From an uncultured Planctomycetaceae bacterium (lineage in GTDB: Bacteria > Planctomycetota > Phycisphaerae > SM23-33), in assembly GCA_964497475.1 (NCBI GenBank), contig CAZCDM010000001.1, positions 1-61,485 of the forward strand: a DNA stretch of 61,485 nucleotides. Reading direction: 5' to 3'. This document shows, piece by piece, positions 225 through 20,700 of this stretch. The translations under genes were made by a program, and so were the position numbers. Under the pieces are notes generated by a model that worked only from the letters and a program-made list of their open reading frames with translations, did no database searches and was not told the DNA's origin. The first letter of the stretch is position 1; every line of letters starts with the position of its first letter.

Positions 225-596
225 ATGAGTGACACGATGGAAGAAAATGCAGTGAACCAGGACGTAGTAGAAAACCAGGCCCGCGAGCAGACCGGCCAGC
301 AGCAGGTCCGTCTTCGCATGGATGAGCGGGATATGACCACCAGCTACGCCAACGCGTTCCGCACGAACGGCACGGCTGAAGAAGTCATGCTGGACTTCGG
401 GCTGAACCTGGTGTCCCCGGCCGCCGGTCAGCAGGACCGCCCGGAGATTCTTTTCCAGGTCAAGAATCGCATCGTCATGAACTACTACTCGGCAAAGCGC
501 CTGGCCATTACGCTCGGCCAGCTGATCCGTCGTCACGAAGAGCAGTTCGGCGAGCTGGAACTGGACATGCGGAAGCGTCAACAGGCCGGCGAATAA
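225..596 (+). CDS. Small DUF3467-like protein (123 aa from ATG 225; the ORF track starts it at TTG 210)
   Basis: ORF track 210..596 (+). ATG 225 lies just downstream of AAGGAAA (214-220), so I prefer it to TTG 210. The C-terminal half (YANAFRTNGTAEEVMLDFG ... RIVMNYYSAKRLAITLGQLIRRHEEQFGEL) matches my memory of the DUF3467 (PF11950) signature. Not verified by a search. Confidence 0.75.
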   Translation: MSDTMEENAVNQDVVENQAREQTGQQQVRLRMDERDMTTSYANAFRTNGTAEEVMLDFGLNLVSPAAGQQDRPEILFQVKNRIVMNYYSAKRLAITLGQLIRRHEEQFGELELDMRKRQQAGE

Positions 597-640
597 GCAT
601 CTCATTCCATGATGCAGATTGACTTCGGGTCAGGTCCTCG

Positions 641-659
641 CGGGCTTGGCCCGTTTTTT
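641..659 (+). terminator. Possible weak rho-independent terminator after the DUF3467-like gene
   Basis: Hairpin CGGGC (641-645) - TTG - GCCCG (649-653) followed directly by TTTTTT (654-659), about 45 nt after the stop at 594-596. The stem is only 5 bp with a 3-nt loop, so support is weak. Confidence 0.35.
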
Positions 660-838
660 CTCCCTTCGTGCGATACGTCACACGACTCATCTTAGCATGA
701 TCTTAACCTCGCATTAGCACCTAAATTGCAAAAGCGATTTATGATGGTTGTCCGCGACTGGCCGAGCTGAGCAAAGAGAATTTTCGCTTGATCGTCCGGA
801 AGCACCCCCCACCCCCCACGCCGCAGGCTGAGAGAACG

Positions 839-2734
839 ATGCAAGAAACAAGCTACATCTCGTCGTCCCCTGGTTTGAAGTCTGCCCCGTCGGCCTCGAA
901 GCCGGGCGCATTGATCCGCCGGCTGATTCAGTTCGAGGGCTCGGCCGAGTCATATGTGCCTGTCTGGCTGGAAGCGCAGTGCTCCTTTGCCGGCGCGTCT
1001 GCCGGTGCGCTGCTCAGCAGCGATGGCAGTGGTCAACTCGTGCCCCTTGCAATGCACCCGGCGCCGCAGGGGGAGAATCCTTCGCTGCCGGAGTGGCTGG
1101 CCCGCGGGGCGGCCGTGGCTTTGCAGGCGGCCCATACCGGCCAGGCTCGGCGGATTCCGCTGCCCGGGCGTGACGAGGATTTCTATGCCCAGGCCGGCCA
1201 GCGCTGTGCTATCATCGTGCCGATCTATTCCGAGCTGGGCGCATCTGGCGCGGGCGTTTACGACGTTACCGCCGCCGGGCCCGAGGAACTCAATCTCGCA
1301 CAAGAACGACTCGAACTGACCAGCACGTTTCCCTCGCGGCATGCGATGCGGTTGAAGCTTGACCGCCGCCAGCAGGACCTCGAAGCCCTCCAGGCCGCGA
1401 TGGAAACTCTCACCGCCCTGAACTCCTGCAAGCGGTTCCAGGCTGCCGCGATGGCCCTTTGCAATGAGCTGACTGCCCGGTTCCACAGCGAGCATGTCGG
1501 CCTGGGGATGCTTCGCGGGCGGTACGTGCATCTCAAAACGCTTAGCCATACTGAAGAATTCAGCCGCAAGATGAAAATCGTCCAGCACATGGAAGCGGCG
1601 ATGGAGGAGTGCTTCGACCAGGACCTTGAAATCGTTTATCCCCCGGACGACGAGGCGACCTACACCAGCCGGGCCACGCGAGACCTCTCGAAGAAAGAAG
1701 GTCCGTCCTCGATTCTTTCATTGCCTATCCGCTACGAGAAGGAGGTGGTCGGCGTATTGACGCTTACGCGTTCGGCCGAGGATCCCTGGCAGCATAACGA
1801 GATGGAAACCCTCCGGCTAACCTGCGACCTGATGGCCGCCCGGTTGGTCGAAATATATCAGCGTGACCGCTGGTTTGGCGCCCGCCTGGCCAACTGGATA
1901 AAAAAGGGCCTTGCGATGGTGCTCAGCCCTCGCCATACCTGGGCGAAGCTTGCCGCCATTGGGATTGTGGGGTTTGTACTGTTTGCATTGTTGGTGAAAG
2001 GGGAGGATTATGTCCAGTCATCATTCTCGCTGGATGCGACGCAGCGGCAAGTGGTAGCGGCCGGGCTGAACACCCGGCTGGACAGTATCCGCGCGGAGGT
2101 CGGCCAAGAGGTCAAGGCAGGGCAGACCCTGGCCACGCTGGACGTGATCGATCTTGAACTCGAGCGGGGCCGACTCCAAGCCGAGCGGCTTGGCTACCTC
2201 ACCGAGGCCGCCATTGCCCGCAAGGAGGGCGAGCACGCCAAGGCAGACATCGCCAACGCCAAGGCTGCCCAAGCCCAGGCTGAGCTGAAGCAGATCGCAT
2301 ACAAAATTTCCCTTGGCAAGTTACAAGCTCCGCTTGACGGAACGATCGTCACGGGCGACCTGCATCGCAGGCTTAACTCCGATGTGCAACGGGGGGATGT
2401 TCTTTACGAGATCGCGCCACTGCAGTCGCTTCGGGCGGATTTGCTCGTGCCAGAGGATCGCATTGTGGATGTCCGCCTTGGGATGAAGGGCGAGCTGGCA
2501 ACGGCCTCGTATCCGGATCGCAAGGTCGGCTTCACCGTCGAGCGGATCAATCCCGAAGCCGAGGCCATCAATCAGGACAACGTCTTCCGCGTGCGTGTTC
2601 GCCTGGATTTGATCCAGCCCTGGATGCGGCCTGGCATGGAGGGCGTGGCGCGGATTCATGTCGGTCGCAGCCCCTATGCCTGGCTGTGGACACGCCGGCT
2701 GGTCAACTGGGTTCGCATGAAGCTCTGGATTTGA
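839..2734 (+). CDS. GAF-domain / HlyD-family membrane-fusion (periplasmic adaptor) protein, 631 aa from ATG 839
   Basis: ORF track 788..2734 (TTG start); the first in-frame ATG is 839. The central region is GAF-like (ILSLPIRYEKEVVGVLTLTRS ... ETLRLTCDLMAARL). There is one TM helix (WAKLAAIGIVGFVLFALLV, about 1941-2000). A HlyD module follows: lipoyl-like half motifs (VKAGQTLATLD ... LQAPLDGTIVTGD), an Ala/Gln/Lys-rich coiled-coil hairpin and a beta-barrel tail (VFRVRVRLD). Confidence 0.8.
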   Translation: MQETSYISSSPGLKSAPSASKPGALIRRLIQFEGSAESYVPVWLEAQCSFAGASAGALLSSDGSGQLVPLAMHPAPQGENPSLPEWLARGAAVALQAAHTGQARRIPLPGRDEDFYAQAGQRCAIIVPIYSELGASGAGVYDVTAAGPEELNLAQERLELTSTFPSRHAMRLKLDRRQQDLEALQAAMETLTALNSCKRFQAAAMALCNELTARFHSEHVGLGMLRGRYVHLKTLSHTEEFSRKMKIVQHMEAAMEECFDQDLEIVYPPDDEATYTSRATRDLSKKEGPSSILSLPIRYEKEVVGVLTLTRSAEDPWQHNEMETLRLTCDLMAARLVEIYQRDRWFGARLANWIKKGLAMVLSPRHTWAKLAAIGIVGFVLFALLVKGEDYVQSSFSLDATQRQVVAAGLNTRLDSIRAEVGQEVKAGQTLATLDVIDLELERGRLQAERLGYLTEAAIARKEGEHAKADIANAKAAQAQAELKQIAYKISLGKLQAPLDGTIVTGDLHRRLNSDVQRGDVLYEIAPLQSLRADLLVPEDRIVDVRLGMKGELATASYPDRKVGFTVERINPEAEAINQDNVFRVRVRLDLIQPWMRPGMEGVARIHVGRSPYAWLWTRRLVNWVRMKLWI

Positions 2735-2740
2735 TCGATC

Positions 2741-4924
2741 ATGGTTGATCGCCCGACATTCAGCGAGTCGTGGTATCGCGTGGCGCATCTACGCCCTCGG
2801 CTTCGACCGACGGTGCATTTTTATCGGCAGCATTATCGCGGGCGAATGTGGCATGTGCTGGAGGATCGCTCCTCCCATCGCTATCTTCGACTGGACTGGC
2901 CGGCCTATCGATTCGTCTCGCTGTTGGACGGGCAGCGAACCCTCGAACAGGCCTGGCAGCTCTGCATCGAAGAACTCGGCGACGAGGCCAACACGCAGGG
3001 CGAAGTCATCCAGCAGCTCGGCCAGCTCTACGCATACAACCTCCTGCAGAGCGATACCGTGCCCGATATCGACGGCATGTTCAAACGCCGCCAGAAACGT
3101 GTCCATCGCGAGGTACGCAGCCAGCTTGCCAGCCTGATGTTCTTCCGCCTGCCCCTGTGGGATCCCGATGCCTTTCTCGACGCGATTCTTCCGCTGTTCG
3201 GCTGGCTGTGGTCGTGGCTTGGGCTTGTGCTCTGGCTGGGGCTTGTCTCGACCGGGCTGTACTACGTCATCGACCAGTGGGGCCACCTGTCAGACAAAAC
3301 ACAGTCCATTCTCGATCCGGAGAACATTCCTCTGCTGTATCTGTCTTTCGCGATCGTCAAGGTGTTGCACGAGTTCGGCCATGCCTTGTCCTGCAAAAAA
3401 TTCGGTCAGCAGGAAGGCTCCGGCGGCGAGGTACACACCATGGGCGTGATGCTTCTGGTTCTCACTCCCATGCCCTATGTCGATACATCCAGTGCCTGGG
3501 CGCTGCGAAACAAGTGGCATCGCCTGACGATCGGTGCTAGCGGCATGCTCGTTGAGTTGGGCGTAGCGGCCGTTGCGGCCATCATCTGGGCGCACACCTC
3601 TCAGTTCACCGTGGTGCGGGGCATTTGCTATAACGTCATGTTCATCGCCAGTGTCTCGACTCTGCTGTTCAACGCCAACCCGCTGCTTCGCTATGACGGG
3701 TACTACGTCATCTCTGATCTGCTGGAGATTCCCAACTTTGCCCAGCGCAGTCGGGAGTACGTCATTTACCGCGTCAAGCGATATGCATGGGGTCTCAAAC
3801 GCCTGGCCTGCCCGGCTCACTCCTTCGGCGAGCGGGTCTGGATGAGTTTCTACGGCCCGGCGTCGGTGGTCTATCGCGTGGTGATCCTCGTTACGATTCT
3901 GCTGTTTCTCACCGACCGGCTGCCCAAGCCGCTGCTGGTCATCGGTATCCTGATGATGTTTGTCAGCATGTTCATGTGGCTTTGCATGCCCCTGCTGAAA
4001 TTCCTCAAATACCTCTTCACCAGCCCCGAGCTGGCACGCGTTCGAACTCGGGCGATGCTCTCGACTGGTCTGTTTGCCAGTGGAGTGATCTACCTGATCG
4101 CCGGGGTCGAATTGCCCAACCGGACACGCCTGGCGGGCATTACTGAGCCGGTGGAGTCCACCGTGATCTATGCAGCCGAGGACGGCTTCCTCGACGACTG
4201 CCTCCCGCATGGCCAGATCGTCGACCAGCCGGGATCGGTTCTGGTGGATTGCCGCAACCAGGAACTCGCCTTGCAGGCTCAGCAGATTCAGCTGCAGCAG
4301 GAGATGGTTGACTGCCAGATTCGCCTCCACCGAGAGCAACGCAAACCGGCCCTGGTCCAGGCCTTCCTCCATCAGAAGCAGGTTCTCGACCGGCAACGAA
4401 ACAGGCTGAACGAACGAACTGAGCGCCTGGACCGCCGGGCGGACCATGAAGGCATTTGGCTGGCACGCAAGCTTGATGCATCACGCGGCGCACTGCTGCC
4501 TCGCGGCGCGGAACTCGGTCAGTTGATCCGCCTCGAGAATATCCGAGTGCGCGTAGCGGCCTCCCAGGACGTCGCTGCGCAGCTCGTCGCCCAGGCCCGG
4601 CCCGACGTGGCAATCCGTCTCAAGGGGCGACCCGACGTTGAATTCGCCGGGCGGATTGAGAAGATTCTTCCCGCCGGGCACAAGCAGCTGCCCGCCCAGG
4701 CCTTGTCCTATGGAGCCGGCGGATCGATTCGAACCAACCCCCAGAAGCCCGAAGAGGCAGCCGAGAACCTCTTCGAGGTCTGGATTACCGTGACCGCCCC
4801 ACCGGCCGAACACCTGCTCAGCAAGCAGCGGGTCATCGTCCGGTTCGATCTTGGTGATCAGTCGCTTACGAGGCAGATGTGGCTGAAGGCGAGACGGATT
4901 TTCCAGCGACGGTTCGGGGTGTAA
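2741..4924 (+). CDS. M50 (site-2-protease-like) zinc metalloprotease fused to a C-terminal HlyD-like periplasmic module; N-terminus PqqD/RRE-like
   Basis: ATG 2741 is 6 nt after the previous stop. The HEFGH zinc motif (3368-3382) sits in a polytopic membrane region. The first ~100 aa have a three-strand plus three-helix pattern (HFYRQHYRGRMWHVLEDRSSHRYLRLD / YRFVSLLDGQRTLEQAWQLCIEELG ... VIQQLGQLYAYNLL) reminiscent of PqqD. The last ~250 aa are HlyD-like (coiled coil QELALQAQQIQLQQEMVDCQIRLHREQ, then a beta-barrel). Confidence 0.85.
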   Translation: MVDRPTFSESWYRVAHLRPRLRPTVHFYRQHYRGRMWHVLEDRSSHRYLRLDWPAYRFVSLLDGQRTLEQAWQLCIEELGDEANTQGEVIQQLGQLYAYNLLQSDTVPDIDGMFKRRQKRVHREVRSQLASLMFFRLPLWDPDAFLDAILPLFGWLWSWLGLVLWLGLVSTGLYYVIDQWGHLSDKTQSILDPENIPLLYLSFAIVKVLHEFGHALSCKKFGQQEGSGGEVHTMGVMLLVLTPMPYVDTSSAWALRNKWHRLTIGASGMLVELGVAAVAAIIWAHTSQFTVVRGICYNVMFIASVSTLLFNANPLLRYDGYYVISDLLEIPNFAQRSREYVIYRVKRYAWGLKRLACPAHSFGERVWMSFYGPASVVYRVVILVTILLFLTDRLPKPLLVIGILMMFVSMFMWLCMPLLKFLKYLFTSPELARVRTRAMLSTGLFASGVIYLIAGVELPNRTRLAGITEPVESTVIYAAEDGFLDDCLPHGQIVDQPGSVLVDCRNQELALQAQQIQLQQEMVDCQIRLHREQRKPALVQAFLHQKQVLDRQRNRLNERTERLDRRADHEGIWLARKLDASRGALLPRGAELGQLIRLENIRVRVAASQDVAAQLVAQARPDVAIRLKGRPDVEFAGRIEKILPAGHKQLPAQALSYGAGGSIRTNPQKPEEAAENLFEVWITVTAPPAEHLLSKQRVIVRFDLGDQSLTRQMWLKARRIFQRRFGV

Positions 4925-4925
4925 G

Positions 4926-6911
4926 ATGGCATCCTCCGCCAGCGCCATTTGGAGAACCCTCAGCTACGACACTCGGCAGGAACCGCTGCCCAAGGGCATT
5001 GATGCGATCTGGGATCGACTGGATGGCTTGGCACGGAGGTTGATCCGCAGGCGGCAGAGCTGTCTGGTCCGGGCCGATAAGGTCCTCCGGCTGGAAAAGG
5101 AGTTCACCGAACTCACCGATGCACGTCTACACGAGGTCTGCGAGGATCTGCGTGATCGGTTCCTCCGGGGCCGGGAGACCGCCGGCGATATGATCCGCGC
5201 CTTCGCGATGATTCGTGAGGTGGCCTTCCGGCAGTTGGGGATGCGACATTACCGGGTGCAGCTGGCAGGGGGGTTCTCCCTGGTCGATGGCTGCATTACG
5301 GAGATGGCCACCGGGGAGGGCAAGACCCTCACGGCTACGCTGGCTGCGGTTGTGGCTGGCTGGCGAGGTCGGGGCTGTCACGTCATGACCGTCAACGATT
5401 ACCTGGCCGAACGCGACGCGGAGGACATGTCGCCAGTCTACAAGGCCTGCGGGTTGAGTGTGGCTTTCATCGGCGGCGAAACGCCTCAGCCCCAACGTCG
5501 CGAAGGATATCTCGCCGATGTGACCTACCTGACGAACAAGGAGGTTGCCGCCGACTTTCTTCGCGATCGACTGGCGCTGGGCTCGATGCGTTCGCTCTCC
5601 TCGGCCTTGCTGGCCAAGCGGGTCCACGGCAGGGGCTCGGGCACGGACAAACTTGTCCAGCGCGGGCTGCACTATGCGATTGTCGACGAGGCCGACTCCG
5701 TCCTTATCGACGAGGCCGTCACCCCCTTGATCATCTCAGGGCAGGCATCCAACCCCGTCCAAGTCGAAGCATTTGAGCAGGCCGCCCATTGGGCGACCCG
5801 GCTGGATCCCGGGCGACACTATCGGGTCAACCGAAAATATCACGAGGTGACGCTCACCTCGGCTGGACAGGAAGTCCTCCGCCGCTGGGGCCAGGCCGCC
5901 GGGGGCATCTGGACCGGGTCTCGCCGGCGCGAAGAACTGATGATCCAGGCCATCACCGCCCGCGAGCTGTACGTCCGAGGCCAGCAGTACATCGTTCAGG
6001 ACGACGCGGTGGTGATCGTGGATGAATTTACCGGCCGACTCATGCCCGACCGTGAATGGCGCGACGGTCTCCACCAGGCCGTCAGCGCCAAGGAAGGCCT
6101 GGAAATCGAACCACCCAAGGCGACTTATGCCCGCATCAGCTTCCAGCGGTTTTTCCGCATGTACCGCCAACTCAGCGGAATGACGGGAACCGGTCGGGAA
6201 GCCATAAGCGAATTTTGGCAGATTTACCATCTGCCCATCGTGGAAATTCCCACCAACCGCCCATGCCTCCGGAAACATCTGCCAGACAGAGTCTTCCCGA
6301 CCCAGCGGGCAAAGTACCAGGCCATTGCCGAGGAAATTCAGACGGTTCACCAGACGCAGCGGCCGATTCTGGTCGGTACCCGAAACGTCAAGGATAGTGA
6401 ATATCTCAGCAACCTGTTGCATGAAAAAGGTCTCGAACATGAAGTGCTCAATGCGGTTTACCACAAAGAAGAGGCACAGATCGTCTCCCGGGCGGGGCAA
6501 CCTGGGGCGGTCACCGTGGCGACCAACATGGCCGGGCGGGGGACTGACATCAAGCTTGGGCGGGGCATCAAAGATATAGGCGGCCTGCACGTAGTTGCGT
6601 GCGAACGGCACGAGTCACCTCGCGTCGACCGGCAGCTCTACGGCCGGGCCGGGCGGCAGGGTGATCCTGGGAGCTGTCAGGCCTGGGTCAGCCTCGAGGA
6701 CGATCTCGTTCAGCGACATGCCGCGAAGCAGGTTCGCATGATGCAGCAATTCCATCGTGGCGGAGAAAAGTCCATCGCATCAGCCGTTACGAGGCAGTTG
6801 TGGGATCAGGCGCAGTCCAGAGCGACCCGGATGGCATTGCGACAACGAAAGTCTGTTCTGGAAACCGATAACTGGCTTGACGAATATCTCGGTTTTGCCG
6901 GTATGGAATAA
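4926..6911 (+). CDS. SecA-like DEAD-motor ATPase, C-terminally truncated paralogue (661 aa)
   Basis: ATG 4926 is 1 nt after the previous stop. SecA motor motifs occur in canonical order: Walker A MATGEGKT (5304-5327), VNDYLAERD, IVDEADSVLIDEAVTPLIISG (DEAD 5685-5696), FQRFFRMYRQLSGMTGT, VATNMAGRGTDIKLG, ERHESPRVDRQLYGRAGRQGDPG. The protein ends about 70 aa after the GRQGDPG motif. Confidence 0.9.
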   Translation: MASSASAIWRTLSYDTRQEPLPKGIDAIWDRLDGLARRLIRRRQSCLVRADKVLRLEKEFTELTDARLHEVCEDLRDRFLRGRETAGDMIRAFAMIREVAFRQLGMRHYRVQLAGGFSLVDGCITEMATGEGKTLTATLAAVVAGWRGRGCHVMTVNDYLAERDAEDMSPVYKACGLSVAFIGGETPQPQRREGYLADVTYLTNKEVAADFLRDRLALGSMRSLSSALLAKRVHGRGSGTDKLVQRGLHYAIVDEADSVLIDEAVTPLIISGQASNPVQVEAFEQAAHWATRLDPGRHYRVNRKYHEVTLTSAGQEVLRRWGQAAGGIWTGSRRREELMIQAITARELYVRGQQYIVQDDAVVIVDEFTGRLMPDREWRDGLHQAVSAKEGLEIEPPKATYARISFQRFFRMYRQLSGMTGTGREAISEFWQIYHLPIVEIPTNRPCLRKHLPDRVFPTQRAKYQAIAEEIQTVHQTQRPILVGTRNVKDSEYLSNLLHEKGLEHEVLNAVYHKEEAQIVSRAGQPGAVTVATNMAGRGTDIKLGRGIKDIGGLHVVACERHESPRVDRQLYGRAGRQGDPGSCQAWVSLEDDLVQRHAAKQVRMMQQFHRGGEKSIASAVTRQLWDQAQSRATRMALRQRKSVLETDNWLDEYLGFAGME

Positions 6912-6937
6912 TCAGCATTGGAAAGGACGTTATCAAA

Positions 6938-7945: not shown

Positions 7946-8491
7946 TGTTCTATGTGAATCGCACATGGGGTTCTCAGAGTGGTGAACAGGGGGAGGTAGT
8001 TCATCATATCCGAGGATCAGATCAGAATCAGCTTCTGGAATCTTGCGAATTTTTTCTGCGTTAGCGCATTCTTTATCTGGCTGTCCGATTAATGCAGCAG
8101 CGGGAAAAAACGGGGAATCGCCCTTCTGGGAAGGGACAAAATGAAATGTCCCTGTGCATTAAATTTGAGTTTTGTAAGAGATGCGTTCAGGTCGCGCAAA
8201 GGCGAAATGCTAACGGGTCTTAACTTGAAAGCGGCTGGTATTCACTCCAGAATGTGCGCGTAGAGTACGTCTCTGGGCTTGTCATTCGGAGCCGAGCCAC
8301 CGTCAGTGACGCATTCGTAATGAAATGGAATTCGGAATAGAGCGCAGTATGCCGCTGAACTCTCCAATAAATCTTGGTCTCGTGTTTATCGCCTTTTTCG
8401 GGGCACCTTTCAGGTATGCCCTTTCCTTATTGCGCAGATCGAACGGACTGGACAGGTCTTCATCTGCGTTCATTCCACGAGGAGTGAAATC
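7946..8491 (+). promoter_or_regulatory. AT-richer 546-bp spacer; probable promoter/5' UTR of the giant gene, with Shine-Dalgarno GGAG at 8481-8484
   Basis: This is the only long non-coding gap between + strand genes. GGAG at 8481-8484 lies 7 nt before ATG 8492. There is an inverted repeat AGGGACA (8132-8138) / TGTCCCT (8147-8153). No promoter consensus can be assigned confidently for this lineage. Confidence 0.4.
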
Positions 8492-8728
8492 ATGTCTTTG
8501 ACCTCGAAAGCGTACCAACGTCTTTGCCACATGTATCGCGTTGTTCTGATGAAGATGCGTGTGAAGAACTTCATGCAGTTTGCGTATCACTCGCCATTGG
8601 CGGGCAAACGCAAGGGCAGGGGCGGTCTGCGCCGACGGCGAGGTGGCGAGGACGGGGCCACTGCGCGCGGAGGGGGTGTTGCGCCATCCAAGCGTATCGA
8701 GATGCTCGAGCCGCGCGTCATGCTTTCC
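8492..8728 (+). other. N-terminal leader: Arg/Gly-rich stretch followed by the LEPRVMLS motif (8705-8728)
   Basis: Translation: MSLTSKAYQRLCHMYRVVLMKMRVKNFMQFAYHSPLAGKRKGRGGLRRRRGGEDGATARGGGVAPSKRIEMLEPRVMLSGTPL. There is no classical hydrophobic signal peptide. LE(P/D)RxLLS after a basic stretch is a motif I recognise from the N-termini of large Planctomycetota (and some Verrucomicrobiota) extracellular proteins. Confidence 0.6.
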
Positions 8729-11700
8729 GGTACCCCGCTGGGTGATCCGGACGATGAGGAAGGTTTTTCCCAGCAGGCCCATCAGCAGATTGACGAGGGG
8801 CTTGGCAAGCTGGCTGCTCTGGGCGAGATGATTGACACTTCGACGGACTTCGCCCAGGACATCATGGTGTTTCAGGGGGCAGAGGGCCTTGGCGAGCTGT
8901 TCGATCTTGGCGATGTGGTGGCCGAGCAGTTGCGTGCTCCGCTGGCGAGTTTCAATTCGATTTCCGATATTGACGGCGATGGGCTGGACGTGGGCGATTA
9001 CATCTCGGCCCTGGAGGCCTTGGCAACGCCGGCCGACTACAGCGATGATACCGGGCCGCTTGGCTTTGCGGTGGATGTTCTGGCTGGCGGATACTACGCC
9101 GACAGCGACCAGCTCGATTTTGAAATATCGATCAATGCCGAACGGCTTAGTGAGATTACTCTGGCCATGGGCGATGAACTATCGGCCTTTGGCATTACGG
9201 CCGGCGCGGGCGAGGCGTTCGAGTTGGCCACTCAGTTGGAGTTCAATTTCGCCTTCGGCCTGATGAATGTCAATTCCACCCCGAGCTTCTACATCCGTCA
9301 GATGGGGTTGGCCTTTTCGATGGATGCCACCTCGCCGGAGATTTCCCAGCAGGTTCAGATCGCGCACCCCTCCGGTGGCGTGGCCCTGGCGACGACAGCC
9401 ACGGGACAGGTCAGCCTGCTCGATGCGGGGGCGACGGTCGCCTTTGCCGATTCGCTCCTGGCCGATGGCATGGTGGACTCGGCGGAGCTGGACTCCATGG
9501 GGGCCAGCGACCTGCTGATTGAGATGACCGGTTCCCTGGAGGCTTCGCTGGACGTATCGGCCACCGTGCCGGGCTTCAGCGACCTGGGTGGCGGGACGCT
9601 TCGTCTCCGTAGCGATTCGCTCTTTGGCGGCGAGGCATCGGAGGTGAATTTCGACGTGGCCGTCAGTGACGAACTGGCCGGCCATCTTGTCGACGTGTTC
9701 TCGCAGATTCACGGCCTGGGCACGACGCTGGCCGGTGATGCAGACCTGACGGCTGCGATTCCAGGCGTGGGGATCAGCCTCAATGAGTTGCTTGGCGAAG
9801 GTGGTATTGATGGGCTGCTGGGGCGGGTCTCTGACGCGGCAGGACAGTACCTGGCAGGGGCTGAGGACATCAGCATCTCCGAGTTGGTGGAGTATATCGA
9901 GGATCAGTTCAATGCCGCCGAGTTTGACGTTGACCTTGGCGGGCTGGACGTTCAGGGCGGCTACGATAACAGTCAGCAGACGTTGTTCATTGACCTGTCG
10001 ATGGCGCCGCAGTACACCGAGGCGTTCCAGTTGGACTTCGCCTCGATTGCCGACTCGATCGCCGCTTCGCTGCGGACCGATGCCACCGTCGATGTGACCG
10101 TCACCGGCGCGATGGACCTGCGGATCAATGTGGACCTCAGTGATCCCTACGTCACGGCCGAGGATGTGTGGTTCGCTGCAGGCCAGGGCAATGATATTCT
10201 GGACCTCTCGGCGGTGATCGAGAGTTACGATCTGCTGTTTGACGCGAGTTTTGCGGGCCTGGGAGTGACGGCTGGCACGGCGGCCAATCCGGCTTCGATG
10301 GTGGCGACGATGTCCTTGGCGGCGGGGCTGATCGACAATGATGAAGATGATCGCGTGAGCCTGGCCGAGCTGCTTTCGGGCGGTTCGGGCATTGCAGCCA
10401 GTCCGTCCGGAAGTGTCGATGTGACCCTGCCGTTTGGCGTTACGCTTGGCGGGTATGATTTCACCGACGGCGGAACGGTCCTGCCGGTGATTGAAATTTC
10501 CGACTCGGCTCTGTTTGACGGCACGGCTGCGACGATTACGACCAGCAACCTCGATGCGATGGTACTGGCGATCGTCGACGACCTGGCCAGCCCGGCCACG
10601 ACGGCCCTGCAGCAGTTGGATACGCTGGCCGGTCGGCTGGAGTCGATGCTTTCTCAGGCAGGTCTGAGCGACGCGCTGACGGCGGTGATTCCGGGCGTGG
10701 GGCTCTCGCTCAACGACCTCTTCGGCCAGGGCGAAACCGGCCTGAGCGACTTCCTGGATATCGGCCAGCATATTCGCGATTACCTGGCTGGATTCGACGC
10801 GGGAAGTTGGCAGATCGGCGATGCGCTGCCGACTCTGCCGGAACTGGTCGAGTACCTCAACCTCAACTGGATGACCACGCTGCCGGGCGAGGGCCATAGC
10901 CTGTCCTGGGAGCTTACGGCAACGGGGTTGGCGGTGAATTTCGTGTCGCAGTCGAATTTCAGCCGACAGGTGGCGTTTGATCTTGGCGCCGAGGCCGAGG
11001 CGCTGGGCCTGACGGCCGAGGGAGAACTGGGTTTCGATTTCCAGACCGATATTGACTTGGGCTTGGCGATTGACTGGTCGACCGGTGCGGTGACGGTCGA
11101 CGTCAATACCTTCGACTTTGACGCATCGGCCGACATGGCGAACTTCCTGGCTGGCGGCCGGGTTGGCCCGCTGGCGATTTCTCTGGGGCGCGACGGCCAG
11201 TACGGCTCGGCGCGGATTGACATTGCAGGGGCGGTTACCTGGGATGACACCAACGAGACCCTCGCGGTGGTGATGGACACGGCCAGCGAGGCCAATCGGG
11301 TTGACGTAACGCTGCCGGTTTTCGCTACGCTGAGCGGCACGTCGCTGGCCGATGAGGCCAATCCGCCGGCGATCACGCTGGCCGGCGAGCTGTTTCCGGC
11401 CGTGCCCGAAGACGGCGTGAGCCTAGACGTGAGCGGGCTTGGCGACTTGCTGGACTTCGGCGAGTTGAGCTTCAGCGATGTGGCTCGGGCCCTGAATGAG
11501 GGCGTGGATTTTCTTCAGAACGCCATCGAGCGGATGCCGTTCTACCGCGAGGTTCTTCCGCTGATCAACCAGAGCCCGGCCGAGATTTTCACATTCATTG
11601 ATTCGCTGCAGGACGCGGTAGACGATGCCCTGGCCGATCCGCAGGCCACGTTGCAGTCGATCGAGTCGGCCATTGAGTCGGCCCTGGGGATCGTGGATGA

Positions 11701-14700
11701 CAACACCGCCGCGGCCGGGGAGCAGTTCTTCAAGCTTTCGCTGGATAGCGATATTTTGCAGATACACTTCGGCCTCGACGAGACGATTCAGCAGAGTGTG
11801 CCTCTGCTGCTGGACGTGTCAGCCTTTAAGGAGATGGTCGGCGGGGTCAGCGAACTGCTGGGCATTGACCAGTTGGCTGCATCGGCCGGTGGGCAGATCG
11901 CCATCGACGCCTTCCTGGACGGCGATATCGAGTTGGGCGTGGACCTCGGTGATGTTGCATCGGGCGCGCCGGCGGTTTTCCTGTACGACCAGAACAACAC
12001 CGCCAGCCTTGGCGGGGCGGGGACCCATCTCACGGCCGGGTTCAAGGTTCTCGGCAGCGGTTCGGGCCAGGCCGAAGCCCTTACCTTTACCGCCGGCGGA
12101 TTGACCGTCGAGGCCGTTGACTGGGCGGTGACCCTGGACGCCGACAGCGATGCGGGCACGAATCCCGAGTTGCTCACTGCCGGCGATCGCAGCGATTACG
12201 TGACACTCTCACTGGGCCTGGCCGAGCCGGCCGGCGGCAGTGCTGACGGACGATTCTACGTCGGGGAGACGCTCAGCGACGCGGTGGACTTCACGGTTAC
12301 CGGCGGCATGGAGGTGGTTCTGCCGCTGCGTGTCACTGCTGGCGGGCTGGAGCTGGACTTCACGCAGACGCCGCTTAGGATTTCGGGCAATACCACGGAC
12401 TATCCCGACGGCGGAGTACTGACGGAAATCGTCAACCGCCTGACGGGGCAGTCTAGCGGCGGGGCTCTGCCGATCACCTTCGATCATCCTGACATGGCGG
12501 CGGTGATGGGGCAGGTTTCGGGGCAGCTTATGGCCGATGCCCTCGATGCCCTGGCCGTCCGGCTGGAAGGACTCAAGCAGCAGCTGATGGACAACGTCCG
12601 CGACACGCTCTCGGCGACGATTCCCGGCACACATTACAGTATTAACGACCTGCTGGACCTCGAGCGCGACGAGGCGTCGATTCCTGAAGAGATCACGGCC
12701 GACACGTCGCGGGGCATGGAGCTCTACCTCACAGCGGGCGATCATCTGGCGACGTATCTGCAGACCCTCAGCCTCGACGGGCCCGTCAACGCGATGACCA
12801 TCGCGGCCGGCGCGATGGACTACCTCAACACCCACTGGATTCCGACACTGCCGGGCTACGATGCCGAAAGCGGCACGAGCCCGCTGAGCCTGACGATGCA
12901 GAGCGATCTGACCAGCGGTGAGATCGTCGGGTTTACGGTGGCCTTCGACGGAACGACGAGTTTCACCCGCAGCGTGGACATGAACCTCGGGGACGAGGCC
13001 GACGATCTGCATATGAAGTTCTCCGCCGATGCCCAACTCGATCTGACGATCGATGCCAACGCGGCCTTCAGTTTCGGCGTGGACCTCACCGGCGGGGTGC
13101 CGGATTTCAATTTTGACGTCTCGAACCTCAGCGTGGCCGTCAGTGGCGGTGCCAGCGATATCGTCGCCGGTGTGGAGGTCGGGCCGGTTTCGGCGACGAT
13201 CGGTACGGACGCTGTCGGCGGAAGCAAGGGCCAGGCCACCCTCACCAATGTCGGCGTGGCCCTGACGATTCCCGCCGGAAGCGATTTGACCTTCGACGCG
13301 ACCGGGCAGGTGGATATCGTCCTGCCGTTCTACGCCCAGCTGGGGGATTACGACTTCAACGCCAATGACATCGTCCCGACCTTGAGCTACCAGGGGTATC
13401 TCTTCCCCGAGGCCGGCCAGGATGCCGCCGCCTTCAGCCACAGTAACTTCGAGGAGTTCTTCAATCTCAGCCGCTTCAGTGTTGACGACATTCTGGCGAT
13501 GCTCGAAGAGGTTCGCGACTGGTCGGCGACGCTGGGCGAGAACGACTGGTTCGCCGCGAACATTCCCTTCGTCGATATCACCCTGGGCGATACGCTGGAC
13601 TTCGCCGAGGGGTTCAATGAGGAAATCCTCAGCCGGATCGATTTTACCGCCATTGAGTCGCTGCAGGATTTTATTGTTGAATTTGCCAATGCCGGCCTGC
13701 TGCCCCAGGGCGTGAGCCTGGAATACGACCCGGCCGAAAACGCATTCATCGTGCCGGTGGCGTTCGACGTGAACCTGCTGGACCTGGAAGGTTTGGCCCT
13801 GGATTTCGGGATGGACCTTGGCGATGAACTGCTGGCCCTGGAGACCAGCTCGACGGCCGACGTGGGAGCGTCGGTGAATACCTCCTTCGATCTGATTATC
13901 GACCTGGACGATGACACGTCGGGCAGTGTCCTGCCGACGTGGTATCTGGATGATTTTACCCTGGGCGGCACGGCCGGGTTCAATGTCGACAACCTGGAAG
14001 TCGCGGCCCGGCTGGGATTCCTGGGCGTGACGCTTGGTGGCGATGCCGCCTCGGGTATCGATTTCGATGCAACGGCGACGGTGACTCTCGGCGATGAGAC
14101 CAACTCGCGATTCGCCCTGGCGGAGTTGCTCAACGGCACGCTGCTGGACAACCTGCACTTTGACGTTACAGGCAGTGGCATTGCTTCGCTGCATGGCCTG
14201 GCCGTCGGGGGCGATTACGGCTCGGTGCTCGCGGCGCCGGATGCAACCCTGGGCATTCATGTTCAGGACATTACCGATATCGGTTCGACGGTGACGCTGA
14301 ATCCGGCGTCCGGCGAGACGGTGGACCTTGCCGCGATGGTCGCCTCCGGCGAACTCAATGCCAATGATCTGGTGGTCATCGTTCCCGAGCTTGGCGATGT
14401 CTTCAACGTGCGGAACCTGGATTTTGGCGCAATCATCGGTGCGCTCAACGAGGGGCTGGAGGTACTCGAACAGTCCCTGGCCGATACGGCCTTTTACAAC
14501 GAGACGATTCCAGTCATCAATCGTTCCCTGAGCGACGTGTTTGATTTTGCGACAACGTTCGCCGATCGCGTGGCCGATGCGGCGGCCAACCCCGTCGCCA
14601 CGCTGCAGCAAGTCGAATCAGCTCTCGAATCGGCATTGGGAATCGAGGATGACAACACCCTCGCAGCCGAGAATCAGGCCCTGGCCCTGACGTTGGCCGA

Positions 14701-17700
14701 TACCGTCCTCACGTTGCATGTGCAGTGGGATGCCGTCTTCAGCGACATGCTCGCGTTCAATCTCAACCTCGCCGAGCTCAAAGCCTTGGCCGGCAGCGAT
14801 GCGGGCGTCGGGCTGGAGGGCATTGATACCCTGGCCGACACCCTCAACCTCACCGCTGGCGGGAACCTGCTGATGGAAGCCTTCGCCGAGGCGGTCATGG
14901 ATGTCGGCATCGACTTTGCCCCGGTGGTCGACTCGGCCTCGCTGCCGGAGATCATCGTCTACGGCTATGACGAAGCCAGTGACACCGGCACGCACGTCGA
15001 GGTTGGCACGCGTGTCACCGGGCAGGACCTCGAGCTGGGATTCTCCGTCGGCCCGATGGATCTGGGCGTCATCGGCGGATCGGTTCTGCTGGATGGCGAT
15101 GGGCAGTTCTCCACGACCGACGATTTTGCGACCTTCCAGGCCTCGCTGAACCAGGACTACACGGTCGGCGACGCGTTCAGCCTGAGCCTCATCGACTGGG
15201 ATCTCACCGGCGCCTTCGCCGTGGACCTGCCGATCGAACTGGGCATTGCTGACGTACCCCTGGAACTCGGCTCCCTGACGATCACCACCAACGAAGCCTA
15301 CGGCGACGGGGGGCTCGAAGAACTCTTCAAGAGTCTCGCTGGTGATGCGACCGCCCAGGGCCAGCCTATTTCCATTACCGCACCGAATATCGTGGGCATG
15401 TTCCAGCAGTTCGGTGGCGAATTCAGCCTGCTTGCGATTCTCAACGACCCGTCCTATATCCTTGACGGAGTGGATATGGGCCTTGGCGTCGTGCAGGATA
15501 TCCTTGGCGATAATGCGGCGATATCCCTGCCGCTGATCGGCGATAAGCTCGATAACGTCGCGACCTTCATACGCGACATGCGGCAGGGGTTCCTGGGCGA
15601 TCTTCGCCAGCGCCTCAACGATCAGCAGCCCGTCGAGATGCTCCAGGAGTCGATGTGGACCATTTTCGGGCCTTCGGCGCTGAATATCCTCCAGGACACC
15701 GATGGCGACGGCACGATTACGATCGACGATATTCAGGTCGGCTGGTATGACATCGACGGTAACCTTCTGGAACTCTGGCAGCCGGGTACAACCGTGCCCG
15801 TCGAGGCCGACGCTCTGGAACTCAACGTTTCGCTGGGCGGTACGGCCCTGAGCACGGGGATCGATATCCCGCTGGATTTCGATATTCCGGGCCTGAGCAT
15901 GGAAATCAATGGCGGGGTCGGCCTGGAACTGAACTGGAGTTATGACTTCGGGCTGGGGCTCAGCGCGACGGACGGGTTCTACCTTGTGACCAACGCCGAT
16001 GAAGAAGACGAAGAAATTGAAGTGACCATCGAGGCGTTCCTCGATGGTACGCCGCTGAACCCTGCCAGCCGGACCTACTTTACGGCCAGCGGACAGTTGC
16101 TGTTTTTCGATGCACTGGTGTCCGACAACACTACCGGCTCGGAGTTGACGGGCACGTTGAGCATCGACCTGGATGGTGGAGTCGACGGGCGACTGACGTT
16201 GGATGAGCTTCTGGCTGGTGATCCGGATGATATCTTCGATGCGGACCTGGCGGTCGATGCCAATGTCAATCTCGGCGTGACCCTGCAGATGGCTGGTTTC
16301 CAGGGCCTGCCAACCCTCGGCGGCGATTTCGTGCTGGACTGGCATTGGGATCTCGAGAACGGTTCGAGCACGCCGAACATTTCGCTGATGAATCTCAGCA
16401 TCGACGTCGGCACGCTGGTAGCCGACTTCCTCCATCCGATTGTCGAGCGAGTCAACAGCGCTCTCGAACCGGTCGCACCGATCATCGAAGCGCTGACAGC
16501 CCCGCTGCCCGGGCTGGATCGATTCTTTGACGAGCCGAATATGCTCGGCATGATCAATATCATCCAGGAGCTGCGAGGCAAAGATCCGATCGACTGGAGC
16601 TTTGTCTACGCTGCTCGTGACATCCTCGGTACGGACACGCAGCCGGGCCTGCTCGACCAGGTCGAAGACATGCTCGACATGGGGGGGGAGATCGTTCTGG
16701 GGCACATCTATGGCTTGGGAACCGACGACGTCAGCTGGTCGTCAACACTGAGCACGGGCGATAGTGACTACGCGGCCTTGGAAATCAAGGAAAGCGGCTT
16801 CAAGCAACTCGGTGCCGGTGGCAGCGCTACGGCCACCCAACGGGCCGGGTTTGAATTCCTGCCCTACATCACGGATATCGGCAACTGGGCTCAGTTGCTG
16901 ACTGGCGGGGATGCGACGCTCTTCACCTACCAGATGCCGCTGCTGACGGCCGACTTTGATTTCCGCGTATTGCTGGGCAAGATTCCCCTGCTGCCCACGC
17001 CGGTGAGCATTAACATCTACGCCAAGGGTGGGGTCGACTTCACTGCCGACCTGACGTTCGGATACGACACGTACGGCATTCGCAAGGCCATCGAGCAGAA
17101 GAATCCGTGGATGGCTTTCGATGGGTTCTATATCAGCGACAATATCGTCGGCAATATCGATAATCCCGAATTCGAGTTCGACGCAAACATCGGGCTGGAG
17201 GTCTCTCTCGATGCCCTCATCGCCGAGGTCGGCTTCAGTGGCGAGGTGGTTCTGGAGACCGATATCGACCTCAACGACGTGGTGCATGACAACAAGATTC
17301 GCGGCAGCGAAATGGTCACGATGTGGACCTACGAGCCGCCCGACGCCGACGAAACGGGTACGGGGACAGGCGATGGCGAGGAGACGCCGGCCTTTGATCT
17401 CTCGACCATCGGCGGGCCCTTGAACCTCGTCAATATCGACGCCCGGCTGGGTGCGGTCATCGGTTTCTTTGTCGAGGCGGGCATCGGACCGTTCTCCAAG
17501 CGGTGGGATATCGAGATTGCCGACTTTACGCTGATGGAATTCCAGGCCCGAGGTCCGCAGGTCGAGCCTCACCTGGCTCATCGCAGCGGCAGCACGCTCT
17601 ACCTGCACACCGGCAGCCGGACCGCTGAGCGGAAATACTTCCTGGCAGAGGATGAAAACGGCGTGGTCGACCTGGCCGATAACTATCGGCTTAGTGGCGC

Positions 17701-20700
17701 CGGCGGGGCGGTCACTGTCGAGTACGACGAGTGGACTCAGACGTATTACGGCATTACGAAAATCGTCGCCGATGGTGGCGAAGGCGATGACGTCTTTGAC
17801 GCCTCGGGCCTGCGGGATGTTCGCCTGGAGATCGATGGCGGGGCGGGCAACGACCGGATCATCGCCGGTGCGGCGGCCTCGGCCGTTCTGACCGGCGGCG
17901 CCGGAGATGACGTCCTGGACGCCTCACGGTCCTGGTATGCCTATCTCCACGGTGGCTCGGGCAGAGATACCCTTATCGGTGGCTATGGGAATGACGACCT
18001 GATCGGAGGGACGGGTGACGATTCGATCACCGGCAATGCCGGCGACGATCGCATCACCGGTGGCGCCGGGGCCGATACCATCGCCGGCGGCCAGGGCGAT
18101 GACACCTACCTCTTCGGCGATGCCTGGGGTAGTGATCGCTACCGCGACACCGAAGGCACGAGCACGCTGGACTACTCGGGCGTCACGGGCGACCTGACGA
18201 TCACGCTCAACCAGCGTGGGGCGGAAATCATCCATGGCGAGTCGCGTGAGGTGGTTACCCCGGCCGGTGATGTGCAGGACATGATCACCGATGCTTTGCT
18301 GACACCCAACCCGTACAGCCGCCCGCAGATTCCCATGCAGGAAGTCCAGGGCCTGGTGATTCACTATGTGGGGAATCCCGGCTCCAGCGCGATGGACAAC
18401 CGCAACTACTTCGAGTCGCTGAAAAACGGCGCCGGGTATGCCTCCAGTCAGTACATCGTCGGGCTTGAGGGCGAAATCATCCGCTGTGTACCGGAAGACG
18501 AAGTGGCCTATCACGCCGGAGGGGCAAACTATACCGACCTGGCACGCGATCGGTTCTGGGATGCCAATCGCGGGCGGATTTATCCGCACGACAAGGTCAT
18601 CGGCATCGAGACCTGCCACCCCGATTCGACGGGACAGTTCACGCAGGTTACGGAAGATGCTCTCGTGGCGCTGTCGGCCGATATCGTCCGCCGCTACGGG
18701 CTGAGCCGCGATGAGGTCCTGCGGCATCATGATGTGACCGGCAAGGACTGCCCCAAGTATCACGTCGATCATCCCGAAGCCTGGGAAGCGCTGGTCGACC
18801 GGATCATGGCTGCTGCGGCCCAGACGCCGGTCGAATCGGGCAGCGAGACCGTTGTGACCACGCAGCTCGGTGCGGTGCAGACCGGCCGCGGCGACGTTGG
18901 AAATATTATCACCCGCTTCGGCGATTTTGATCTGAACATCGGTCGTCCGGTCAGTGCCTTCGGTGCCGATGAAACGACCCAGCGGCTGGCCGAGGGGCTC
19001 GAAGAACTCAGCCAGTATGCACGCGACATGAAGGACTCGCTGCTGGAAGACATCGCCGGTCAGATCGGCCAGCAGATTCCCGGCACGGGCCTGAGCGTCG
19101 ATGAACTGCTCGACATGCGGGCGTATCTCGGCCTGGGCGATTACATCCAGGCCTACCTGTGGGGCTATACCCACCCCAGCGAGCCGCTGCCCGACAGCGA
19201 ACTGGACATCCCCATCGGTACCGATGCCGAGCCGACGGTTGGCGGGTTGGTCGACTACCTCGAGAGTTACTGGTTCCCGGCCCTGCTGGGAGGCCAGGCC
19301 CAGGGAAGCCCGATGACCCTTTCGTTCTCCAAGACCGACGGCGTGGTGACCGGGCTGGCGATGGATTTTGACGGCGAGGCCACCTACACACGCGACATTC
19401 TGGTTTCGCTTGGCTCCGACGCCGAAGCGCTGGGGCTGCAGTTGGCTGCCGACCAGACCGCCACCGTCGAAATCACCGCCGGGCTGGACTTCTCGATGAG
19501 CCTGGACTGGTCCAGCGAGACACCCGCCTGGAGCTATCAGGTCGACGAGTTGACCTTCGACGCACAGGCCGACCTAGACGGTGTGATCCTGGACGGAAGG
19601 GTCCACGATCTGGCGGTCACGACCGGCCGCGCCGGGGCCTCGGCCGGTACGTTCGACCTGACGCTTGATGCGGATATCACCCATGCCGCCGATTCGCTGA
19701 GCCTGACTCACAGCGGCACGGTGGCCCTGATCATGCCGATCTACGCCGAAATCGCCGGCACGCATGTCAACACCGCCCCGGCGAGCCTCTCGATTACAGG
19801 CGATATCGACGCCGGGACGAGCAGCTTCAACGCCATGAACTTTGAAACCTTCGACGCTTTTGCCGACGTCGAGGTCGAGACGATCATCCAGCGTCTCGAA
19901 ACGCTGGGCCGATGGGTCGAGGGCCTGGCTGGGCCCGACATGGGCGCGGTGGAAATCCCCTCGCTGGGCCTGACCGTGGGTGAACTCTTCCAGCTTGAAG
20001 ACAGCTGGGCCGCAGCCTATTCGCAACTGGACCTCAGTGGCGCGACAACCATTCAGGATGTCCTGGCTGCGATCGAATCGGCCGGGCTCGTTGCCAATGG
20101 CCAGGCCATCAGCTATGACGCCATCGAGCGAACCATTACCGTTCCGATGAGCTTCGACCTGAGCCTCGCAGACGTCCAGGAATTGCTGGTTAATACCGGC
20201 GGTCACTACGACGCAGAGTTCGAGGCGATGCTGCTCGATGCAATCGCCGCTCTGGCCGGCTCGGCCCGTGCGGAGGTCACCTTCGTTATCGATGCTGACG
20301 GCCCCGGCGCGACCGAAGGCTTTACCACCTCGGCTCAGATGCACATTACCGCTTCGGCCTCGGACATCCACTTCCCAGCCCGACTGGGCGACCTGGAAGT
20401 CAGCGTCGGCACCGAAGCATCCGGCACGGCTGAGATCGATCTGACGATGACCGCTTCGATGATCGAAGCGAGTGAAACCTTCGACCTGACCACCGGCGGA
20501 ACGATGAATGTCTACCTGCCTGTCTATGCGACCCTGGCCGGGACGAACATCAATCCGACACACACGGCAGGGCTGAGGCTGACGGGAACGGCCTTCGGCG
20601 CCGGTGGCATGGCCGTGACGACCGAGAATTTCGACAACCTCGTGGCCTTCGAGACGCTGACAGCCCAGCAGTGGCTCGACCGCATCGAACAGGCGGCCCG

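Follow-up and report, generated by a model that had tools for sequence, protein, structure and literature searches.

We analysed a 61,485-nucleotide stretch of DNA (hereafter the window) from an uncultured Planctomycetaceae bacterium (contig CAZCDM010000001.1 of assembly GCA_964497475.1), concentrating on a gene that encodes a SecA-like protein of 661 amino acids (aa), to which we refer as short SecA. Its open reading frame (ORF) starts with ATG and begins 1 nt past the stop codon of the gene for an M50-type membrane protein; the genes on either side of this pair encode two membrane fusion proteins (MFPs), one of which carries a cytoplasmic GAF domain (GAF-MFP) and the other of which belongs to the HlyD family (Table 1). 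We refer to these genes, in the order GAF-MFP, M50, short SecA and HlyD, as the module. Further downstream, a giant gene runs in a single uninterrupted frame off the end of the window, and its product bears an N-terminal LEPR-XLL motif. What short SecA is, and what it might export together with its membrane partners, is the subject of this analysis.

Table 1. Features of the window, followed by the LEPR-XLL proteins encoded near the module at related loci (motor and other domain names as in Pfam or NCBIfam).
Feature	Position	Strand	Basis
DUF3467 small protein, 123 aa, accessory	225..596	+	Pfam PF11950, E = 2.4e-17
Terminator-like hairpin (12-bp stem, 8 GC pairs, T-run) between the DUF3467 and GAF-MFP genes	626..663	+	Consensus scan
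GAF-MFP: cytoplasmic GAF, transmembrane segment aa 385-403, periplasmic HlyD/MFP	788..2734	+	Pfam, NCBIfam, hydropathy
Three-part M50 protein, 727 aa: PqqD/RRE-like, site-2-protease-like core, MFP-like	2741..4924	+	NCBIfam, Pfam, motifs
Short SecA: NBD1, PPXD, NBD2, first half of the scaffold helix, tail ...TDxWLDEYLGFAG	4926..6911	+	Pfam, NCBIfam, alignments, AlphaFold2
HlyD-family MFP, 335 aa	6938..7945	+	RND_mfp, 119.6 bits (cutoff 94.9); HlyD_D23, E = 3.6e-17
Giant gene, candidate cargo, open to the window end	8492..61485	+	Uninterrupted frame of at least 17,664 codons
LEPR-XLL motif, giant aa 68-84 (KRIEMLEPRVMLSGTP)	8693..8743	+	NCBIfam NF012209 LEPR-8K, 22.5 bits (cutoff 17)
RTX block 1, 8 GGxGxDxUx nonapeptides, giant aa 3095-3207	17774..18112	+	HemolysinCabind, E = 5.7e-9; regular expression
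N-acetylmuramoyl-L-alanine amidase, giant aa 3283-3422	18338..18757	+	Pfam Amidase_2, E = 4.9e-22
RTX block 2, giant aa 10656-10768	40457..40795	+	HemolysinCabind, E = 1.3e-7; regular expression
L004 LEPR protein, 1,458 aa, Peptidase_C25 and dockerin			
L008 LEPR protein, 2,333 aa, RHS and dockerin, directly downstream			
L021 LEPR protein, 2,558 aa			
L032 LEPR protein, 628 aa, cyclophilin and Calx-beta			
L045 LEPR protein, 2,818 aa, LEQRILLSADP, 4-nt overlap with the short SecA start			
L046 and L049 LEPR proteins, at least 3.5 thousand aa, LEERILLSADP			
L048 LEPR protein, 11,547 aa, LEQRVLLSADP			

As judged by Pfam, short SecA has the motor and the preprotein-binding domain of SecA. SecA_DEAD covers aa 44-431 (E = 2.6e-99), with SecA_PP_bind (PF01043) inserted into the first nucleotide-binding domain (NBD1) at aa 280-386 (E = 5.3e-26), which makes the match to the preprotein cross-linking domain (PPXD) 107 aa long; a P-loop_SecA match follows from aa 446 (E = 1.6e-61). 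Neither SecA_SW (PF07516) nor SEC-C (PF02810) was matched anywhere in the protein. This is exactly the pattern that an earlier note, made from the sequence alone, had predicted, namely matches to SecA_DEAD and SecA_PP_bind without SecA_SW. All canonical SecAs that we compared carry PF07516, and most carry PF02810; the short SecAs are without both. The motor motifs, which the same note had described as present and intact, are all in place (MATGEGKT at aa 127-134, DEAD at 254-257, GMTGT at 418-422, TNMAGRGTDI at 533-542 and RAGRQGDPG at 574-582), and all five are invariant across an alignment of 25 relatives. Two distances given in the note need small corrections: the DEAD box and GMTGT lie 160 rather than about 135 aa apart, and the protein continues for 79 rather than about 70 aa after GRQGDPG.

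In a search of solved structures, short SecA aligns with residues 26-603 of the 841 residues of Bacillus subtilis SecA (E = 7e-145), its stop falling at residues 603-606 of that protein; since the alignment ends at about residue 603, the long scaffold helix is kept from its start to roughly its middle. What is absent, by both Pfam and alignment, is the wing domain together with the two-helix finger and the C-terminal tail. An AlphaFold2 model of short SecA (mean predicted local distance difference test score, pLDDT, 73.9) shows a confidently predicted helix at aa 620-647, corresponding to the beginning of the long scaffold helix; the tail after it is modelled with low confidence. When this model was superposed on SecA, a check that the note had proposed, the best Foldseek matches were substrate- or SecY-engaged SecA structures (query-normalised TM-score, TMq, 0.76 for 6itc_A and 0.74 for 5eul_A and 3din_A), and the search also retrieved PDB entry 5k9t, the engineered Escherichia coli truncation SecA-N68.

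The truncation is native, because the next gene is near (26 nt past the short SecA stop), because no C-terminal half is present in any frame and because the length is conserved. When the C-terminal halves of canonical SecAs were searched against all frames of the window with tblastn, no match was found (best E = 0.094). At least 120 close relatives (60-65% identity, from Phycisphaerae and Planctomycetota) are known, and all those listed are 650-679 aa long; in an exhaustive search, 140 of the 150 best representatives of clusters at 50% identity are 620-720 aa long, and most of these align through the last residues of the query, down to 39% identity, P0216 (1,079 aa) being the sole clearly full-length protein among the representatives listed. 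The tail itself, TDxWLDEYLGFAG, has W650, L651, L655 and G656-G659 invariant among close relatives, and 77 of the 140 distant representatives likewise have an L-(A/G)-F-(A/S)-G-like motif. Judging from these alignments, the last residues of short SecA are conserved and not decayed, and the conserved yet predicted-disordered tail resembles a docking peptide. A sequencing frameshift with loss of the C-terminal half, which the earlier note had named among the findings that would count against its reading, is ruled out by the null tblastn search and by the length kept across relatives.

A related possibility is that the protein is an artefact or the housekeeping copy, i.e. a frameshifted or decaying secA or the only SecA of the organism, and the 61-kb window does hold no second secA. 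We consider this hardly credible: the length and the family-specific C-terminal motif are kept across hundreds of clusters, the C-terminal half is found in no frame of the window, short SecA scores under the cutoff of every SecA and SecA2 equivalog model, and the cultured genomes that carry the family encode a canonical SecA in addition (Kamneva, Poudel & Ward 2015, PLoS One, PMC4452313). The pseudogene part of this explanation is already effectively refuted. The scores in question are 650.7 bits against a cutoff of 814 and 634.5 against 800 for the housekeeping SecA equivalogs (NF009538 and TIGR00963), and under the cutoff for all four SecA2 models (TIGR03714, TIGR04221, TIGR04397 and NF012136). 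Furthermore, no secY2 or asp genes are found among the neighbours of short SecA in the window, which encode the GAF-MFP, M50 and HlyD proteins.

The main rival explanation is that short SecA is a specialised, SecA2-like targeting factor or motor and continues to work with SecYEG. It would recognise LEPR-XLL proteins and pass them to the housekeeping channel or drive them through it, perhaps with the help of canonical SecA, the M50, MFP and TolC components then serving only the periplasmic, outer-membrane and leader-removal steps. NBD1, PPXD and NBD2 are all retained, as is the stretch of scaffold helix packed against them, the predicted structure superposes best on SecY-bound SecA, and Gram-positive SecA2-only systems also use the housekeeping channel (reviewed in PMC4452313). 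Other features speak against it: short SecA has neither wing domain nor two-helix finger nor C-terminal tail, the LEPR leader of the candidate cargo has no hydrophobic core, and the close linkage of the short SecA gene is with the M50 gene and not with secY. The equivalent engineered E. coli fragment, N68, is reported to have deregulated ATPase activity and to be inactive in translocation. Taken together, we regard continued use of SecYEG as unlikely.

Among 36 genome loci, about 28 independent species-level representatives share the gene order GAF-HlyD, M50-HlyD, short SecA; they are spread over Phycisphaerae, Sedimentisphaerales, Pirellulales, Planctomycetaceae, Victivallales and Nitrospirae. 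The same core, at 39-42% identity and with a gene for an outer-membrane efflux protein (OEP), is found in Parendozoicomonas (Gammaproteobacteria), in an Oceanospirillaceae metagenome-assembled genome and in lineages at 30-47% GC. In distant lineages the junctions between the M50 and short SecA genes are 1-nt gaps or 4-nt overlaps. A fourth MFP is often paired with a gene for an OEP/TolC-like lipoprotein, and an OEP/TolC-like gene adjoins the module, beside this MFP, at seven loci (L011, L014, L027, L046, L048, L049 and L050). With the MFPs, the M50 protein, short SecA and the adjoining OEP, the apparatus thus has cytoplasmic, inner-membrane, periplasmic and outer-membrane parts. In several Phycisphaerales (L015, L019, L040 and L043), an opposite-strand resistance-nodulation-division (RND) efflux operon, encoding a transporter of about 1,110 aa and two MFPs, adjoins the module downstream of short SecA; it is probably unrelated. 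In one Phycisphaerae lineage, paralogues of about 220 aa with PEP-CTERM tails and ordinary signal peptides flank the module (positions 3638-4330 and 12372-13022 of L004; also in L005).

Both the protein family and the module were described in 2015. Kamneva, Poudel and Ward (PMC4452313) reported secondary SecA_DEAD proteins without the wing/scaffold domain, which their tree gathers into a clade distinct from the canonical SecAs that these genomes also encode, and a conserved locus encoding GAF-HlyD, weak Peptidase_M50, SecA_DEAD and HlyD proteins; Phycisphaera mikurensis is among the carriers that they tabulated, and one carrier belongs to the Chlorobi. In their proposal, a system like type I secretion systems (T1SS) has the SecA_DEAD protein for its ATPase, and the M50 protein might form its membrane part; they called the biological role of the module ‘completely unknown’. 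In Methylobacterium extorquens AM1 (META1p2402-2399) the order is GAF, M50, SecA_DEAD, HlyD, and in exponential phase only the GAF gene of the module is expressed (PMC4452313). The window agrees with this description in domain content and neighbourhood: SecA_DEAD and PP_bind are kept and SecA_SW is lost, GAF-HlyD, M50-like and HlyD proteins are co-encoded, and the gene order is identical to that in M. extorquens. As the family and the module were published in 2015, the short SecA studied here belongs to a known, uncharacterised family, and we found no follow-up to that work in the literature searched. The partnership with M50 and HlyD membrane proteins suggested in the earlier note is supported by strict synteny over many loci and is the conclusion reached in 2015; the note's observation is confirmed and its interpretation supported, and neither is new. 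The 2015 paper names no substrate, and it is silent on giant and LEPR-XLL proteins, on an RRE-like domain in the M50 protein, on DUF3467 and SapC, and on the conserved C-terminal tail.

The M50 protein has three parts. Its N-terminal domain (aa 38-102) resembles PqqD, the fold that recognises the leaders of ribosomally synthesised and post-translationally modified peptides (RiPPs), hence RRE-like for RiPP recognition element: PqqD (PF05402) matches 19 of 21 M50 orthologues (best E = 3.3e-7), and weak precomputed matches exist for two further ones. Its core contains HEFGH (aa 210-214) and NPLLRYDG, the two zinc motifs of site-2 proteases (S2P), and hydrophobic segments between aa 146 and 456; against Peptidase_M50 (PF02163) the window protein reaches E = 0.0026 (17.6 bits against a threshold of 27.2), and the orthologue at L046 is matched at E = 1e-5 or better. 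The C-terminal domain (aa 458-645) is MFP-like (RND_mfp, E = 2.3e-6). As to the GAF-MFP, Pfam matches GAF (E = 7.9e-11) and HlyD_D23 (E = 1.3e-13) and NCBIfam matches RND_mfp (E = 8.9e-23); gene callers place its start 17 codons later, giving 631 aa.

The giant gene occupies 86% of the window with its frame, and on the parent contig (Ga0153773_1000277) it is called as 17,688 aa. By composition and hydropathy, its product has a net charge of -2259, 7 Cys residues and no transmembrane or other hydrophobic segment. The N-terminus consists of an Arg-rich stretch followed by IEMLEPRVMLSGTP, with no Sec signal peptide or hydrophobic core. The repeats-in-toxin (RTX) blocks are internal, not C-terminal, and the second belongs to an internal duplication that covers about 1.3 thousand amino acids (kaa) at 40% identity (blastp; aa 2001-3293 versus 9503-10857, window positions 14492-18370 and 36998-41062). 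The duplicated region includes an RTX block with identical nonapeptide spacing in both copies; the first copy stops at the start of Amidase_2, and the second is without an amidase. Thirty-odd long ORFs on the minus strand (9179-61312, up to 1,626 aa) were considered and read as shadow ORFs of the giant frame, not as genes. A promoter and terminator scan between the HlyD gene and the giant gene gave nothing above shuffle expectation.

The association of the module with proteins of this kind holds in both directions. Starting from the module, we found LEPR-type N-termini on large proteins of extracellular type, without signal peptides, within 10 kb at eight loci (Table 1). A relaxed form of the motif, searched for in the first 130 aa of ORFs of at least 500 aa at selected loci, occurs 11 times where 0.62 occurrences would be expected; of the 11, eight are true LEPR N-termini and three are the N-terminus of short SecA itself. 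Furthermore, a giant of at least 4,926 aa, known by its size only, lies directly upstream of DUF3467-MFP-M50-SecA-HlyD at the place of P0301. At L045 (positions 1548-11974), the overlap of the LEPR gene with the short SecA gene suggests direct coupling of cargo and motor. The short SecA at that locus is a distant one (39% identity, 40% GC), and no M50, GAF or HlyD gene lies within 10 kb of it.

Starting from the motif, we scanned a metagenome collection for the DNA pattern of L-E-[E/Q/P]-R-x-L-L-S-A-D-P and obtained at least 120 stretches (L051-L170), most of them only 1-6 kb long and largely filled by the LEPR gene. The pattern lies in frame at the N-terminus of a long or open ORF in 119 stretches, starting at a median of 32 aa past the first Met. 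The leader that emerges extends beyond what the pattern forces: a K/R-rich region, then F-R-(L/V)-E-(P/A), then LEPRxLLSADP and an Ala/Leu-rich stretch, with F at -5 in 77 of 116 and E at -2 in 107 of 116 leaders, and P or A at -1. Searched by tblastn with module proteins of four lineages, 17 of the 119 stretches carry short SecA, the M50 protein or both, against a chance expectation of about 0.4 (our own estimate, from an 8-kb module occurring about once per 4-Mb genome, with no empirical control set). These 17 span 0.42-0.73 in GC and include no near-identical pairs. The LEPR gene is downstream on the same strand in 12 of them, in the order GAF, M50, SecA, HlyD, LEPR as in the window, and in four the LEPR gene and an OEP-HlyD-GAF-M50-SecA operon run divergently. 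Of the 119 stretches, 44 carry one or more module or accessory components. The module and LEPR-XLL genes are thus linked genomically in both directions, and since LEPR-XLL giants adjoin the module in unrelated bacteria, they are candidates for what short SecA probably exports.

A 2026 preprint on ‘Chlorochromatium aggregatum’ (bioRxiv 10.64898/2026.03.19.712371) describes proteins of 36.8 and 20.6 kaa in the epibiont that have an N-terminal LEPRxLL and are flanked by sapC and tolC. These giants of Chlorobium chlorochromatii ‘lack known signals’, yet are exported, and they are co-expressed with a horizontally acquired secA (10.64898/2026.03.19.712371); this gene, Cag_1676, might encode a short SecA. 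The authors of the preprint draw no connection to the short-SecA module, and in the literature searched we found no paper that joins this module to LEPR-XLL cargo. In 20 of our metagenome loci (e.g. L052, L069, L074 and L118), a split SapC pair of about 92 and 119 aa lies directly before the LEPR gene, matching the sapC-giant-tolC layout reported for Chl. chlorochromatii; L048 has SapC-family ORFs too (positions 1683-2392 and 14632-15341). The SapC pair may be a second accessory, or a chaperone that takes the place of DUF3467.

The small DUF3467 protein, whose gene precedes the module in many loci, recurs at L004, L006, L010, L015, L016, L018, L019, L040 and L044, and is also encoded beside LEPR genes at L102, L132 and L157. 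As a candidate SecB-like chaperone it received no support either way: hhalign against E. coli SecB gave a probability of 0.1%, and a profile search against the PDB returned noise only. A single-sequence AlphaFold2 model of DUF3467 is all-helical and poor (pLDDT 62.9, predicted TM-score 0.33) and was not used. As regards the hairpin that follows its gene (Table 1), terminator-like sites in the window as a whole are not above shuffle expectation.

Two further explanations of the module do without export of giant proteins. In one, it serves the maturation and export of small leader peptides of the RiPP or bacteriocin type, the RRE-M50 protease cutting a short precursor that short SecA and the MFPs then export, and the giants are co-located for other reasons. 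The closest NCBIfam models of the M50 protein are indeed proteases of this kind, the daptide intramembrane metalloprotease (E = 1.1e-45) and the YydH/LiaK RiPP leader proteases (all below cutoff), and its PqqD/RRE-like domain fits the same picture; however, no conserved small precursor gene or modifying enzyme is present in the module at about 40 loci, and the strong two-way linkage goes to large LEPR-XLL proteins, which makes a RiPP-type role very unlikely. In the other, the module is devoted to regulated intramembrane proteolysis or quality control, with short SecA as an unfoldase for the M50 protease, or else forms a GAF-gated efflux pump for small molecules. S2P proteases are classically signalling enzymes, the MFP and OEP parts are like those of efflux pumps, a GAF sensor is part of the module, and its gene is the one expressed in exponentially growing M. 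extorquens (PMC4452313). Neither version, however, explains why a preprotein-binding domain is retained or why LEPR-XLL genes are linked to the module, and we consider both quite improbable.

The reading that we favour, with a probability of roughly 0.6, is that short SecA acts in the cytoplasm as the ATPase of an envelope-spanning, TolC-linked machine dedicated to the export of giant proteins tagged with LEPR-XLL, and not as a motor of the Sec translocon. The odds are slightly better than even, in our estimation, that a distinct, widespread and hitherto unrecognised secretion system is made up of short SecA, the RRE-S2P-MFP protein, the two other MFPs and a TolC-like factor, with DUF3467 or SapC as accessories; its signal would be the N-terminal LEPR-XLL leader, and its cargo giant, RTX-type surface proteins or effectors. 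Such an exporter might work as follows. The leader of the cargo would be a basic stretch followed by F-R-(L/V)-E-(P/A)-LEPRxLLSADP or a variant of it, without a hydrophobic Sec signal; in the window the putative cargo is the RTX/amidase giant (at least 17.7 kaa) whose gene follows the module. The leader of the unfolded chain would be caught jointly by the PPXD clamp of short SecA and the PqqD/RRE-like domain of its M50 partner, and ATP cycles of the DEAD motor would push the chain, N-terminus first, into a conduit formed by the M50 core and the three MFPs and docked on TolC. The leader would be cut off by the S2P-like active site, the RTX blocks would fold on extracellular Ca2+, and the GAF domain could gate export on a cytoplasmic ligand. 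The predicted-disordered tail of short SecA, WLDEYLGFAG, may act as a docking peptide for the membrane partners, substituting for the lost SecY- and SecB-binding parts.

Several observations weigh against such an exporter. The weakest point is the inner membrane: the module shows no obvious inner-membrane channel gene, which is also a point in favour of continued use of SecYEG, and neither the module in the window nor related loci with annotated genes encode an ABC transporter. No TolC/OEP gene is present within the window, and we infer that the TolC-like outer-membrane factor is encoded elsewhere in the source genome. The window copy of the M50 protein itself scores under the gathering threshold of PF05402 (E = 0.0012, 19.5 against 23.4 bits, profile positions 2-67 of 67), and the LEPRVMLSGTP of the giant, a Planctomycete variant, deviates from the LLSADP consensus. 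The C-terminus of the giant lies off the contig, and a classical C-terminal T1SS signal is therefore possible. As to linkage, many module loci (e.g. L006 and L050) have no LEPR gene within 10 kb, and most LEPR loci have no module in their flanks, which are short. Finally, at L125 (positions 4603-8489) and L152 the order is M50, HlyD, LEPR with no room for short SecA in between, and in these lineages the motor is either encoded elsewhere or dispensable.

The value added here is the cargo link to LEPR-XLL giants, which is unpublished in the literature searched. Several of the linked LEPR proteins rank among the very large bacterial ones (at least 17.7 kaa in the window and 11.5 kaa at L048; the Chl. 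chlorochromatii giants are 20-37 kaa, 10.64898/2026.03.19.712371), and their coupling to the module makes the exit route of giant proteins experimentally approachable. If our reading is true, the module would be a secretion system whose SecA-type motor does without SecY and is coupled instead to a TolC duct and to an intramembrane protease that recognises the leader, and it would supply the missing export route for giants that ‘lack known signals’, such as the symbiosis proteins of Chlorochromatium.

Set against known systems, short SecA shares with housekeeping SecA and SecA2 the DEAD motor, the ATPase motifs and the inserted preprotein cross-linking domain, and when structurally aligned with B. 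subtilis SecA it is about 41% identical (TM-score about 0.7-0.76). It differs from them in ending at about residue 603, without the helical wing, the two-helix finger/IRA1 and the SEC-C zinc tail, and in having an N-terminal extension and a C-terminal motif peculiar to its family. E. coli SecA-N68 (5k9t) has nearly the same domain content, motor and PPXD without the C-domain; however, N68 is a laboratory fragment, whereas short SecA is natural and widely conserved, with about 40 more residues of the scaffold helix and a tail of its own.

The T1SS (HlyBD-TolC, LapBCE and SiiCDF) resemble the module in their MFPs and in a TolC-like factor, which adjoins the module at related loci, and the candidate cargo is also alike: acidic, Cys-poor, RTX-bearing, often giant and without a Sec signal peptide. 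In contrast to the T1SS, the module has a SecA-like ATPase in place of an ABC transporter, its polytopic partner combines an S2P-like protease and an MFP domain in one protein, it has three different MFPs, and the putative signal is an N-terminal LEPR-XLL rather than an uncleaved C-terminal one. With the peptidase-containing C39-ABC transporters (PCATs), the PqqD-type RREs and the daptide and YydH/LiaK M50 proteases, the module would have in common an N-terminal leader, an RRE-like domain and a membrane leader protease tied to export. Unlike in RiPP leader handling, however, the cargo is apparently made up of proteins of 0.6 to more than 17 kaa and not of peptides, the energiser is SecA-like, and the M50 protein scores far below the cutoffs of the RiPP protease models. 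Finally, West-Roberts et al. (bioRxiv 10.1101/2023.11.21.568195) reported SecA_DEAD/PP_bind domains without scaffold and wing inside giant proteins of Omnitrophota and Actinobacteria, and suggested self-export. This is an independent association of such SecA motors with giant proteins: there the motor is a domain within the giant, whereas here it is a separate 661-aa protein encoded beside M50 and MFP genes.

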